Shown: positions 38,901 through 44,900 of the stretch, piece by piece
How positions within the stretch are numbered: position 1 is the first letter of the stretch
Layout: every line of letters starts with the position of its first letter
DNA from: Escherichia coli
Lineage (GTDB): Bacteria > Pseudomonadota > Gammaproteobacteria > Enterobacterales > Enterobacteriaceae
NCBI RefSeq assembly: GCF_030384885.1
Contig: NZ_CP128613.1
DNA: 64,000 nt
Strand: one strand, 5' to 3'
Program-made: the position numbers

Positions 38901-41900
38901 GAAAATCAACGCCCACTATTTTGACAAAAAAGCAGAAGATTATTTCTTCAATAAGTTTCTGTTGTCTTTTGATCCCTCTACACAGCAATGGAGTTACGCT
39001 GGCGAATCTCCCTGGTACGGAACGGCTGGTGCGGCGGTTGTGAATAAAGGTGATAAAACCTGGCTTATTAATGGCGAAGCCAAACCAGGATTGCGAACGG
39101 ATGCCGTATTTGAACTTGATTTCACCGGTAATAATTTAAAATGGAATAAACTTGCTCCCGTCTCATCACCAGATGGCGTCGCTGGCGGTTTTGCGGGGAT
39201 AAGCAATGACTCACTTATATTTGCCGGGGGGGCCGGATTCAAGGGGTCGCGGGAAAATTATCAGAACGGTAAGAACTATGCGCATGAAGGCCTGAAAAAA
39301 TCATATAGCGCTGATATTCATCTTTGGCATAACGGGAAATGGGATAAATCTGGCGAATTATCGCAAGGTCGGGCCTACGGAGTATCATTGCCCTGGAATA
39401 ATAGTTTATTAATTATTGGCGGTGAAACTACAGGCGGCAAAGCGGTGACGGATTCAGTTTTGATCTCTGTGAAGGATAATAAAGTCACAGTACAAAACTA
39501 ATGCTTCAGGGCCCCAGTAAAGGGGCCCTGCTATCAATTTATCATTTCAATTACGCGAAAATTATATGAACGCAATAATATCGCCCGATTATTACTATGT
39601 TCTTACCGTTGCTGGTCAGTCTAATGCCATGGCGTATGGCGAAGGACTGCCATTACCGGACAGGGAAGATGCGCCTCATCCCAGAATTAAACAATTAGCG
39701 AGATTTGCGCATACGCATCCCGGAGGCCCGTCATGTCACTTTAACGACATTATTCCACTGACTCACTGCCCACACGATGTTCAGGATATGCAGGGTTATC
39801 ACCATCCTCTGGCAACGAATCATCAAACACAGTACGGCACCGTTGGCCAGGCACTGCATATTGCACGGAAATTACTGCCCTTTATTCCTGATAATGCAGG
39901 GGTTCTCATCGTTCCGTGTTGCCGTGGCGGATCGGCTTTTACCGCGGGCAGCGAAGGGACATATTCAGAACGGCACGGAGCCAGCCATGATGCTTGTCGT
40001 TGGGGAACGGATACTCCGCTATACCAGGATTTAGTCAGCAGAACGCGAGCCGCACTGGCAAAAAATCCGCAGAACAAATTCCTCGGCGTATGCTGGATGC
40101 AAGGCGAATTTGACTTAATGACCAGTGACTACGCGTCACACCCTCAACACTTTAATCATATGGTTGAAGCCTTTCGTAGGGATCTAAAACAATACCATTC
40201 TCAGCTTAATAATATTACTGGCGCGCCGTGGTTTTGCGGCGATACCACCTGGTACTGGAAAGAAAGTTTCCCTCATGCGTATGAAGCTATTTATGGCAAT
40301 TATCAAAATAATATTTTAGCCAATATTATTTTCATCGACTTCCAGCAACAAGGTGAAAGAGGGCTGACGAACGCGCCTGATGAAGATCCGGACGATTTAA
40401 GCACGGGATATTTCGGTTCAGCGTACCGGTCACCGGAGAACTGGACGACGGCACTGCGAAGCAGTCATTTCAGCGCGGCAGCCCGTCGGGGGATTATTTC
40501 TGACAGGTTTGTAGAAGCAATTTTGCAGTTTTGGAGCGAAAGGTGAGCGGGGAGTTTATTCATGGGGGATGTCCTTGTCCGTTCCCAAAACAGGCAACAA
40601 AAAACAAATGAGATCAAGGTAATATCTCTTCACTTGCAGGCTCGAACAGCAGGCAATTGCCAATATAATAATCTGGCACAAGGGTGAAAAACGCGCACCG
40701 CATAAACCGTTGTTATTGCTTACAGATTAGCCGGATGCCTTAATAGACATCCGCGCCTTTTCGATTATGGCTCGGAAATCTACGAACCTCTGCACAGTTT
40801 ACTGGAACGTTTTGGACCACAGCGTTCACAGTACCGACCTGATATGCCGTTCTGGCGATTATAAGGCGACGGATTCTGGCAAATAGACGATGATAATATG
40901 CTTAATGATGTTCAAAGAAATTAGGCCATCATTATATTATTGCTTGCATTTTCTTTCATTCCCAAAAGCACCCGCCATTAATCCCAGGCGCATTATGCAA
41001 AGGAAAATGATTAGGTAAACAATAAGATTTATAATCAGGAAAGGCGACTCGCAATAAAACGCAAAGTCGCCTTAACATTGGTAAAATATGCCCTTTACTA
41101 CTCCTGTATCATGAACGGCTCATCACATTTAAAGCTGACGTTGATCCAGACTGCTATATATTGCCTTTATTTCATTTTTTACGCTTTCGCCACGGTACAC
41201 CAAAGACGTATCGTATCGTTGATACTTATCTTCCCGTGCAGCACTGAACCAGTTAAAAGATCCGACACACAGCAGTTCTTCATCCTCAATTACAATTTTG
41301 CTGTGGACACGATTAACCAATTTCGTAGCGATACCCATCTTATTGAGCTTTTCAACAGCATCATTCAGCAGATGTTTTTTCTCCTGACGCTTATCATCAT
41401 CGACATGCGCTATATTGCAGTTTTTATCCGTCACCACAGTAATATCAATGCCCCGGGAACGGGCCAAAGCCATTGATGCCAGAAATCCCGTTTGCTCCAT
41501 TTTTTGCCAGGATAACCAAGGGGAAATAATCGTTATTTTCTTTTGAGCTCCGGCAAGAGTCTTGTTCAAAAATTCATCATGCGGCTCCACGCCATGCAGC
41601 GTTGAAATTTGTGTATGTGCGGAAATTAAATCCTGTCGTTTATGAAACTCAAATTGCAACGCATTATTATCTGAAGAAAAGAGATATTTTGCCAATAACC
41701 CTCGCGGCGAAAATGCGGGCTGCATCTCGATAAGGTCCATATCGCCAAATACCAGAAAACTATCTTTAGCGCGTGAGACAGCAACATTGAGGATACTGCT
41801 GTTGCTATCAAGAAACCTGCCATCTTCATGTTTTGAGTAGACTGGAGAAAAGAGAACAATCGCCCTTTCCGCCCCCTGCAAGGAGTGCACAGTCCCCACT

Positions 41901-44900
41901 GTCAGTGAACCCTCCTCGTCTTTGCCATTAATTTCCAGCTTACGCAATGACGTTTTGATAGCATTAACCTGCGCCGAAAATGGCGTCACAACACCAACAA
42001 CTTTGTACAGTGGTTCCCCGTAATGGCGCTCTATATCATCCTTATGTGCCACCAGCCATGCTGCTATTGTTTCAGCTTCAAGAGGGTTATAACGGCTCCC
42101 CCCATTTGGCTTCATGCCTCTACCATCAATATGTAAATATCCCATTGCGGGGAAAATCGTCCCTTTTTCTATCCCTCTTTTAGGCTGCAACTTACCGTGA
42201 TAGCAAAGTGAGTTACAGTAGCCGATGATGTTATTGAAACAGCGACGATGCTCATACAGATACATTCCGCGCTCGAACTTGGGATCATACTGGTAGTGAG
42301 AGTTAAACTGGGCTACCTGCATTACGCTGCCAGATGCTGCACTTTTTCCAGACCCACACACGTGAGTATATGTATTTATTAACTCTTCCTGAGTGCCACC
42401 AGAAATAATATTCTCCTCAAGCATATTGCCCATATCAGTGACGGGTAGACAATTCCAGATTGGAGCTATTTGCTCCGTATCGCCAATCACCAGCGCTTTC
42501 TTCGCCAATGCAAAGGAAGCTGCAGCAACCTCCGGGAGTACCTGCCCGGCTTCATCGACAATCAGTAAATCAGCAAAGTTATATAAATAATTATTATCCG
42601 ATGTTCTATCGCCACCAAAAGATTTTCTTCTGTTCATATGGTAAGGCAACATGTAGCAGGTCATCACCACACAAGGAGTAAGTTTCATTCTTCTTAGCCA
42701 ACGAGCCTCGGCGATAGTTATCCCGGTAATTCCTTTTTCTTTTTGCAAATTATCTATAGCTGCCATATCAATCAGCCAACGCCCCTCCCAATAATGGGTC
42801 GCTACCAAGAACGCTGGAAAACGAATCTGAGTATCGGCAAGTTCATCCGCTCCTGAAAGATTCAATTCATCGTCACCTCTGTAACCCAAAGCATAAGTCA
42901 ACTCACGCCATTGTTTTGCAGCTTCTATTTCGCGTCGGGCTATATCCTTCGCATAGTTGATGTTCTGTTGGCACTCATCCTGCTCCTTTTGCGTTTTAGC
43001 AATCAAACTATCAATAAATTCATCAATATCTTCGGGATAATTTCCCTGGAACGATGTCATTCTTGTGCCAAACGTAGAGTCCAGGAAGAGGTTAATCTGG
43101 TAATGGCGTTTAGTACGAACAGCAGGAAGCCATGACAAAACCGCATACACTAGCGACTCATCAGCACGGTATTGCTGCCACTGCTTTTTACCTCTGGTTA
43201 AAAGTGAAATTTCATTGCCAATATTGAGAAGACGTGTATTTTCGTCCTGAAGATACTGGTCGAGATTCTCACTGATGGCTCGCTGTTCATGGCGGATATC
43301 ATTAAGCCTGCGCCATGCGGGTTCGATTTGCTGAAGTTGAATAAACTGTGAAGTTAAACGTTCATGCAAAAGCGTCACTACATGCTCTGGTGAATTGCAC
43401 TCTCCAGCTCCAAACGCCACCTCCGCTTTTTCAAGGTAAAATGCCCGGGCTTTTTCCAGATATTCCTGGGATTCAACGTGGTTAAAAAAATCTTCAGTCT
43501 GGTATTTCTTCGCAGCCTCAACCTGACGGCTTTTAGACGGAAAATAAGCGCCATAGCTTATTACCTCCGGCAACCAACGACCAGCCATTACGCCAAAACC
43601 AGTAGAGAAATCTTTTCCAAAGGCTTCAATAATATTGGTGACGGCCTGATTGTTAGTTGATGTGGCAATAATTACAGGAGGTTCAGCTTGATTAAGTGCG
43701 GCTCTAGTCCATTCGGTGGCGATAATAGAAAGCACCAGCGTAGTTTTACCCGTTCCCGGAGGACCGTTAACAGCGAGCATATCCCCCTGCTGTTGAGTCA
43801 GATAATGGCTCAGGGCATCGCGCTGCGCCACTGCCAGCGGAAACTTATCGCCGGAATGCCCCAGACGTTCGCAGAACATAGCATTCTTAGCGAGAAGTGG
43901 CTCTAGTGGAACCATTTCATTTGAGGCAAAACGCGTTAATAGAGGAACCTTAACCTGGCTCATCAGCAGATGGTCATACAAAGGCAGGATATGAACACTG
44001 GCCCCTACATGCTGGCTAGCTTTAACAATATAACCGTATCCAGCCCGTTCGTATGGCTCAGATGTAGCGACCCAATTTCCAGCGACGTTTCTTAAAAGGT
44101 TATCTGACTGTTGAAGATAATTTTGCCAATGCTGACGATACCTGGCATGGCGTTCCGCTTTCTCTTCGTCAGTTTCTTCGTAATGTTCTGGTTGACCTTC
44201 ATTAATGGTGGCTGTGTTATGCGTAGTTTTGTATTTGTCATATTGCACCAACTCACCAATAGAAAAATGACCGGAAGGGAGAGGTTCAAGCAGATCGCGG
44301 GGAATAGTGGCTGAAGCGGCAGGAAACAAAAAACCTTCCCTATTAAGAAGAGCGGAGGTAACCAGTGGCGTAATAATTGCGGGTGCACCTGCCGTTTGCT
44401 CTTTGCCATGCTTTACAATGCGGTTCCATACCTGGGGCCGTAACACGACTTCAACGTTTTTTACAGACTCCCCTTCACCGTCAAAAAATGCCCGAATAGT
44501 TTCGTCATCCAACTGCCCTGCGCTGATATTTATCCACCGAATGAATGATTCTGTATCTTTACGTGAAAACGTTCCTTTGCCAGATTCGGCGTCAGCTAAG
44601 GAGTTGCGCCAGTATGAAGTGAATCCCAATGTATTGCTGTCCATTTCTCATTCCGTGACATAATAGAAATCATTGATTTCATTGATGTAAATATTACTTA
44701 TGATTAAACATTGTCCACGATGCGAGCGCGATCGCAATAAATATTGTGCCTGGAGGATGGATTAGATTTTCTGAAAGAGCTAAATCCTTAATAGATAAAC
44801 GCGTACATACTTGGTTCGGTATTCTTAAGGGATTTAATATGGATTGAACCAGGTTGACGTTAGTTGAAAAAAACAGTGGAAAAGATTTGTGTGGCGCGGA

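Follow-up and report, generated by a model that had tools for sequence, protein, structure and literature searches.

Escherichia coli K-12 carries yjhR as a pseudogene. What does this gene encode when it is complete, and is the complete form an immune gene? The question is raised by a 64,000-nt stretch of E. coli contig NZ_CP128613.1 (assembly GCF_030384885.1), referred to here as the window, in which all coordinates below are given. The window holds yjhR as a single unbroken open reading frame (ORF) with an ATG start at 41129..44644 on the minus strand, encoding a protein of 1171 aa. An initial annotation of this DNA described the product as a superfamily 1 (SF1) helicase fused to a phospholipase D (PLD) nuclease and assigned it the architecture of Mokosh type II antiphage proteins. 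The gene is almost certainly an intact mkoC, which by itself makes up a Mokosh type II antiphage system, and represents E. coli yjhR at full length. Judged from its sequence, this allele probably defends against phage. The best overall explanation of the locus, which we hold to be probable, is an intact MkoC built as a four-part helicase-nuclease, lying on the chromosomal flank of leuX and perhaps acting by a mechanism of the single-stranded DNA (ssDNA) type.

The identification is correct yet already documented. The family, its architecture and its link to YjhR have all been published: YjhR was previously described as a fused Mokosh in the preprint of Cury et al., which also compares its structure with those of human MOV10L1 and PLD6. 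Automated tools would flag the gene, and current understanding is unchanged. What the window adds is a view of the former state of the K-12 pseudogene, a complete single-protein immune system, and a second natural Mokosh type II allele, 63% identical to the tested one, for comparison with it.

Identification of MkoC

The match to MkoC runs from one end of the protein to the other. A search of defence-system profiles, which the initial annotation had proposed as a check, was run with PADLOC and returned the Mokosh type II profile MkoC (PDLC03924) aligned to residues 1-1169 over profile positions 1-1135 of 1136 (E = 0, 1464.2 bits). The next-best PADLOC profiles are partial, MkoA matching residues 692-974 (3.9e-33) and MkoB residues 1011-1139 (2.7e-12). 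Pfam places AAA_11 at residues 273-458, AAA_12 at 795-969 (1.4e-19) and PLDc_2 at 1028-1153 (2.7e-10), and a Pfam search found no kinase domain. The protein shows the features of Mokosh type II. Its helicase lies N-terminal to the PLD nuclease in one polypeptide, as seen in the ORF, the order of the Pfam domains and a continuous high-confidence structural model. The helicase is of the Upf1-like (COG1112-type) SF1 class with intact ATP-binding motifs, the HKD motif of the PLD domain is intact, and the whole is closely homologous to an experimentally validated member.

Mokosh type I, composed of MkoA and MkoB, shares a homologous Upf1-like helicase C-terminal half and a homologous PLD domain. 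It is, in contrast, a two-gene system whose helicase protein carries a Ser/Thr kinase domain, while in the window MkoC both parts are fused. Type I identity was considered and rejected: the MkoA and MkoB profiles match in part only, no kinase family is present and the neighbouring genes are unrelated.

RefSeq gives the label 'helicase YjhR' (WP_106907644.1) to an identical copy in strain 2013C-4282. In an NCBIfam search no family reached its curated cut-off, and therefore this name does not derive from a model match. The best NCBIfam matches are partial and comprise the antiphage helicases PLuB, ProA and Hhe, plus IGHMBP2.

Domain Organization and Predicted Structure

All motifs quoted in the initial annotation are found in the translation of 41129..44644. 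They include Walker A (GPPGTGKT, residues 294-301), Walker B (DEAGQ, 697-701), motif III (GDTEQ, 721-725) and the HKD motif H1114-S-K-IVIE-D1121 (HxKx4D, 1114-1121), which is followed by GSFN(W) at 1128-1132. Walker A and HKD each occur exactly once in the protein.

An AlphaFold2 model derived from an alignment of 67 sequences has a mean predicted local distance difference test (pLDDT) score of 90.4 and a predicted template modelling score (pTM) of 0.85. It divides the protein into five regions, all encoded on the minus strand. The first is a family-specific alpha/beta domain (residues 1-265; 43850..44644) with conserved YWRNSLAD and IPRDLLEP sequences. The second, at residues 266-392 (43469..43849), is the first half of the RecA1 domain; it is delimited by Pfam AAA_11, AAA_30 and AAA_19 matches, conservation and modelled secondary structure and contains the Walker A segment (294-302; 43739..43765). 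RecA1 is then interrupted by an all-helical insertion at residues ~393-655 (42680..43468), recognized from modelled helices and column entropy. The second half of RecA1, with DEAGQ and GDTEQ, follows together with RecA2, which holds motifs V/VI (QGAER, 923-927; VAVSRA, 954-959); the two span residues 656-995 (41660..42679). The last region is the PLD-family nuclease domain (996-1171; 41132..41659), with its single HKD motif, H1114-x-K1116-x4-D1121 (41282..41305), and G1128-S-x-N1131.

The insertion is modelled as helices at residues 419-457, 461-494, 507-529, 537-585 and 596-629, with pLDDT of about 85-97. It is also the most variable part of MkoC, with the highest column entropy at 441-600, and residues 401-600 are 40-43% identical to the validated-type allele described below, compared with 63% overall. 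This most divergent region is a candidate specificity module.

A search of the Protein Data Bank (PDB) with the window sequence gave weak helicase matches alone (E at least 1.5e-4) and no Mokosh structure, while the PLD domain searched by itself matched Nuc at E 0.49. Folds were therefore compared. The predicted fold combines an Upf1/Senataxin-like SF1B helicase with a Nuc/Zucchini-like PLD nuclease on its C-terminal side, the latter bearing one HKD motif per chain. Eukaryotic relatives of the two parts, namely the Upf1-like SF1B helicases (Upf1, Senataxin/Sen1, IGHMBP2, ZNFX1 and MOV10L1) and Zucchini/PLD6, share 15-18% sequence identity with MkoC. MkoC differs from them in carrying both activities on one chain, and no counterpart of its N-terminal domain or long helical insertion was detectable. 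A different arrangement of similar parts is found in SauUSI (PDB 7clg), an ATP-dependent type IV restriction enzyme that joins a PLD nuclease to a helicase. In SauUSI the PLD domain is N-terminal, the motor belongs to superfamily 2 (SF2) and the target is modified double-stranded DNA; MkoC, by contrast, has an SF1B motor and a C-terminal PLD domain.

Relation to the Validated Allele and Conservation

SG150, a validated type II construct given in the supplement of the Millman et al. preprint, comes from E. coli 5-366-08_S1_C1, and its MkoC is also 1171 aa long. Over the first 399 residues of SG150 MkoC, the window protein is 66% identical to it and the allele of ATCC 11775 (WP_000344091.1) is identical at 397 positions (99%). 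The ATCC 11775 allele was used as a validated-type sequence over the full length, where the window MkoC aligns at 63.1% identity over 1171 of 1171 residues with 2 gaps. This alignment to a validated-type Mokosh, in line with another check proposed at the outset, agrees with the PADLOC result and bears out the assigned architecture. The two proteins have the same length, the same domain order and the same positions of Walker A, Walker B and HKD. By alignment, the window MkoC is collinear with an experimentally validated system and homologous to it, yet represents a separate allele. It is closer to homologues from Serratia, Dickeya and Xenorhabdus (73-74%) than to the validated-type E. coli allele. 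In each case a tRNA gene on the same strand lies upstream of mkoC, although the validated-type allele is inside an island beside its integrase at tRNA-Phe, whereas the window gene occupies the leuX chromosomal flank without an integrase of its own.

The wider family comprises 1,100 clusters at 50% identity with E of at most 1e-30, mostly collinear from end to end, and near relatives across Enterobacterales and Aeromonas hold a length of 1170-1180 aa. Across 67 members reaching down to ~30% identity, conservation is complete or at least 90% at the following positions, all of which the window protein keeps: Walker A and Walker B; G721, D722 and Q725; Q923, G924, R927 and R958; and the HKD set H1114, K1116, D1121, G1128, S1129 and N1131. 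A subset of the family, 967-1028 aa long, stops at about residue 996 and has no PLD domain. On the one such contig examined (143-5726), a 683-aa ORF comes after the helicase-only gene; it has no Pfam or PADLOC match and may encode a different effector.

The K-12 Remnant and Distribution in E. coli

K-12 yjhR (b4308) occupies the same locus as the window mkoC, between nanS and the leuX-associated island. Homology of MG1655 is limited to window positions 41129-42356, the 3' 1228 nt of the gene, at 98% nucleotide identity. The K-12 gene is annotated as a pseudogene, 'frameshifted; missing N-terminus', and has a 1-nt deletion near window position 42161, so that the initial description of K-12 as carrying only a yjhR pseudogene holds. 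Missing are the 5' 2288 nt that encode the N-terminal domain, Walker A, the insertion and Walker B. The remnant retains part of RecA2 and the PLD domain alone, which rules it out as a Mokosh system.

A megablast search finds part of a gene of the yjhR lineage in 1,729 of 5,426 complete E. coli genomes. The 5' 2288 nt are present in just 12 of the 5,426, six at 99.6% identity or more and six at about 94.7%. Shorter remnants, found in ST131-type and other strains, derive from the K-12-type truncation, which ISEc52 or ISEc23 has then struck. Many independent truncations were considered as an explanation and rejected, since the remnant classes 1-1100/1103 and 497-1228 are this same truncation with ISEc52 or ISEc23 added. 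All remnants are joined to the same KpLE2-like distal genes, topAI-yjhQ-yjhP-sgc, which points to one old deletion followed by secondary decay. In K-12-type genomes, the 5' two-thirds of yjhR has been lost at the junction with a KpLE2-like island.

About 900 genomes carry a divergent allele of the SG150 type (~68% nucleotide identity) elsewhere, for example adjoining an integrase at tRNA-Phe in ATCC 11775. Mokosh type II in general is thus common among E. coli genomes. An origin of mkoC on a phage was examined and set aside, as 50,697 phage records contain essentially no matches, with short unannotated contigs as the only ones.

The leuX Flank

The window leuX gene, a tRNA-Leu (CAA), lies at 54415..54499 on the minus strand (ARAGORN; Rfam tRNA, 59.4 bits). 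Between it and mkoC is an integrase-bearing leuX island (44965..54414), defined by comparison with an empty site and treated here as context, with a P4-type integrase at 52946..54292. The initial annotation placed mkoC just outside the distal att-like repeat of this island. The repeat is real, positions ~44834-44961 being 87% identical to 54300-54429 beside leuX, and a strain with an empty site strengthens the placement. In strain R32_14_1F, 303 bp separate an intact yjhR (99.6%) from a leuX that is unoccupied and directly followed by ahr. The window is collinear with this strain over 33326-44964, and homology picks up again at 54300. Aligning the distal site of the window with the empty site and with the window's own leuX site shows identity to the first ~6 nt of the leuX 3' end; past that point the window has a degenerate copy of the tRNA end, borne on the island. 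Together, these two comparisons indicate that a 9.5-kb island (about 44965-54414) inserted into leuX and displaced the native leuX terminator and mkoC from the tRNA gene.

On the basis of these alignments, what appears as a distal att-like repeat is the displaced native leuX flank. From mkoC outwards on the minus strand, it consists of the native 303-bp leuX-to-mkoC spacer (44645..44947), identical to that of R32_14_1F, and an attR-like remnant (44948..44970) in which the first ~6 nt of the native leuX 3' end give way to the degenerate tRNA-end copy. The spacer contains a copy of the leuX intrinsic terminator (44934..44917), found by consensus scan and sequence, and, between it and the mkoC start codon, a promoter-like site, TGGACA-16-AATATT (44717..44690), found by consensus scan, which may serve as the mkoC promoter. 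An Rfam scan found nothing near mkoC. The island brings its own 115-bp copy (54300-54414, 87%) of the native leuX-downstream sequence, including the terminator hairpin; leuX therefore keeps a terminator after integration. This copy is much longer than the usual att core.

The same comparisons place mkoC as the first chromosomal gene downstream of the leuX integration hot-spot. A position as cargo of the present island was rejected, as the empty-site homology spans the gene and ends at 44964, inside the copy of the leuX 3' end. An older tandem island that held mkoC and lost its integrase is not needed, for R32_14_1F has the same 303-bp spacer leading straight to leuX. The locus exemplifies how island traffic at a tRNA hot-spot can displace and erode a neighbouring defence gene.

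Proposed Mechanism

Mokosh systems protect E. coli, and in other Mokosh systems mutations of the ATP-binding site or the PLD active site abolish defence (Millman et al. preprint). The discoverers proposed that Mokosh senses RNA or RNA/DNA (Millman et al.). A published biochemistry preprint reports that a related E. coli Mokosh II, once purified, behaves as a monomer in mass photometry, at about 138 kDa against a calculated 132 kDa; the calculated mass of the window MkoC is 132.3 kDa. The related enzyme cuts only ssDNA phage genomes and nicks plasmid DNA, RNA not being among the substrates of that preprint, and among 11 phages it protects in vivo against the ssDNA phage SECphi17 only. Among the papers searched, none is dedicated to the mechanism of Mokosh type II.

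By analogy with these systems, an ssDNA-directed translocase-nuclease mechanism can be proposed for the window MkoC, and we give it an even chance of being right. The helicase would load on single-stranded nucleic acid made by an invading element, and the SF1B motor would translocate on that strand at the expense of ATP. Going by the published biochemistry of the related allele, the candidate substrates are ssDNA genomes and replication intermediates, with RNA or RNA/DNA hybrids as a further possibility. The strand travelled by the motor would then be cut by the tethered PLD nuclease. Nuc, Zucchini and BfiI form one active site from two HKD motifs. Because a Nuc-type site needs two such motifs and the window MkoC has one, cutting would probably need a pair of molecules, or of PLD domains, to come together on the substrate, and this could act as a safety catch. 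This dimerisation step is inferred from Nuc, Zucchini and BfiI.

Alternative Explanations

Several observations weigh against the account given here. The window allele diverges by 37% from the validated allele, and by about 60% in the helical insertion, and therefore its target range may differ or be absent. The intact gene is confined to the 12 genomes named above, which suggests a lineage that is readily lost. The candidate promoter matches the consensus at 9 of 12 positions only. The monomeric state of the related Mokosh II in solution is awkward beside the need for two HKD motifs. Finally, the closest structural relatives are mostly RNA helicases, and this, together with the discoverers' RNA proposal, means that ssDNA may not be the physiological substrate.

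The last point leads to the alternative that survives best. It keeps the identity as MkoC but takes phage RNA or RNA/DNA hybrids as the substrate, with the motor threading transcripts and the PLD domain cutting them, much as MOV10L1 and Zucchini handle piRNA precursors. The helicase relatives speak for it, and the ssDNA genomes cut by the related enzyme speak for the ssDNA-directed mechanism; we regard the RNA alternative as possible but doubtful.

A more far-reaching proposal concerns what the yjhR lineage is for. Its MkoC may differ in target range from the validated allele through the divergent helical insertion (~393-655). As an ssDNA-directed translocase-nuclease right next to the leuX hot-spot, it may restrict ssDNA phages and also further elements with a single-stranded stage of entry or replication, for example conjugative DNA and rolling-circle replicons, and its loss at the island junction may reflect conflict with mobile elements. 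This is speculative and rather unlikely. If it were true, the repeated loss of yjhR would record mobile-element conflict and not neutral decay.

The gene could instead be an open but functionally silent relic, heading for the pseudogene state of most strains. Its rarity in intact form (12 of 5,426 genomes, against 1,729 with part of the gene), the decay of both adjoining nuclease genes in the window and the weak promoter-like site would all fit such a fate. The pattern of substitution does not. Compared with the intact, 94.7%-identical allele of strain N1420, the ratio of nonsynonymous to synonymous substitution (dN/dS) is 0.13 (dN 0.027, dS 0.20), and it stays low in every domain, at 0.09-0.18, which argues against a silent relic. 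All catalytic residues are kept, the upstream 303 bp are identical to those of the empty-site strain, and other E. coli Mokosh type II genes are reported to be expressed and growth-correlated. Decay into silence is therefore improbable, and an intact, working mkoC remains the preferred explanation.

Least probable by far is a housekeeping or repair helicase-nuclease of the RecD, TraI or Dna2 kind, given that the NCBIfam scores fall far under their cut-offs (recD, 23.1 bits against 310; RecD2, 20.3 against 500; TIGR00376, 66.8 against 348.9), the HKD motif is intact and conserved where the initial annotation had named a non-catalytic C-terminus as grounds for doubt, nearly every E. coli lacks the gene or has it truncated, so that it cannot be essential, its G+C content is 0.43-0.47 throughout, low against the value of about 0.51 for E. 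coli, it sits among restriction-type nucleases beside a tRNA integration hot-spot, and other alleles adjoin an integrase at tRNA-Phe.

Neighbouring Genes and Island Content

Convergent with mkoC, at 40656..40861 on the plus strand, is what remains of a decayed gene for a phosphorothioated-DNA-binding restriction endonuclease, interrupted by an internal stop. The PGAP note on an identical record reads 'frameshifted; missing C-terminus'. The initial annotation called it a decayed HNH gene fragment; it is decayed and the right gene, but the surviving piece is N-terminal, and the C-terminal part that encoded HNH has been deleted. At the same position, strain N1420 (5803-7462 of its locus) has an intact 216-aa HNH endonuclease and an intact 290-aa phosphorothioated-DNA restriction endonuclease beside yjhR, both with nuclease-type PADLOC matches, and compared with N1420 the window has two deletions. 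The N1420 arrangement suggests, from this comparison, an ancestral three-gene nuclease islet beside leuX, with mkoC as its sole intact survivor in the window.

A second gene for a phosphorothioated-DNA-binding restriction endonuclease lies beside the island integrase (51855-52775, minus strand). It is split into a 182-aa ORF (profile positions 1-163 of 284) followed by one of 120 aa, and it has 71% DNA identity to the intact N1420 gene. With the fragment at 40656-40861, two decayed copies of one gene type thus flank the island. Beyond that fragment, nanS (39566-40546) is open in the window and encodes 326 aa, and N1420 is annotated with a full 981-nt nanS. RefSeq marks a partial 'sialate O-acetylesterase' pseudogene at this position in 2013C-4282, K-12 and R32_14_1F, a label that is probably an artefact of annotation rules.

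The last island gene (45078-45884, minus strand) lies on the island side of the att remnant. Its 268-aa product has an XRE-type helix-turn-helix at the N-terminus (PADLOC HTH_VI, 9.7e-12) and a long, acidic C-terminal stretch that matches no family. The gene was considered as a partner or regulator of mkoC and rejected, as it lies within the island beyond the att remnant and is absent from the empty-site strain. The island cargo at 48571-51777 consists of restriction-modification debris and defence-type genes with a G+C content of 0.33-0.35. It comprises a 112-aa ORF in which a piece of a type I restriction endonuclease is fused to a methyltransferase C-terminus (48571..48909), an intact HsdS (48906..50090; PADLOC, 3e-164), a 181-aa ORF with no assignment (50146..50691) and a full-length match to PDC-S08, a candidate defence gene (50764..51777; 2.9e-135). 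The window is 99.98% identical to strain 2013C-4282 over 29129-48383, after which the match jumps. The leuX island of that strain is about 21.7 kb long and has an intact type I restriction-modification system, and from this comparison the window island appears to derive from it by an internal deletion. In the collection, not one complete genome covers at least 80% of the window's leuX island.

Two further observations lie beyond leuX. The idnK-idnD-idnO-idnT-idnR genes, found between ahr and yjgR in R32_14_1F (12895-17943 of its locus), are absent from the window at ~55714-55805. At 60514-60708 on the minus strand, the Rfam family Ysr276 (Yersinia sRNA 276, antisense type) matches over its whole length, scoring 181.9 bits against a gathering score of 100.

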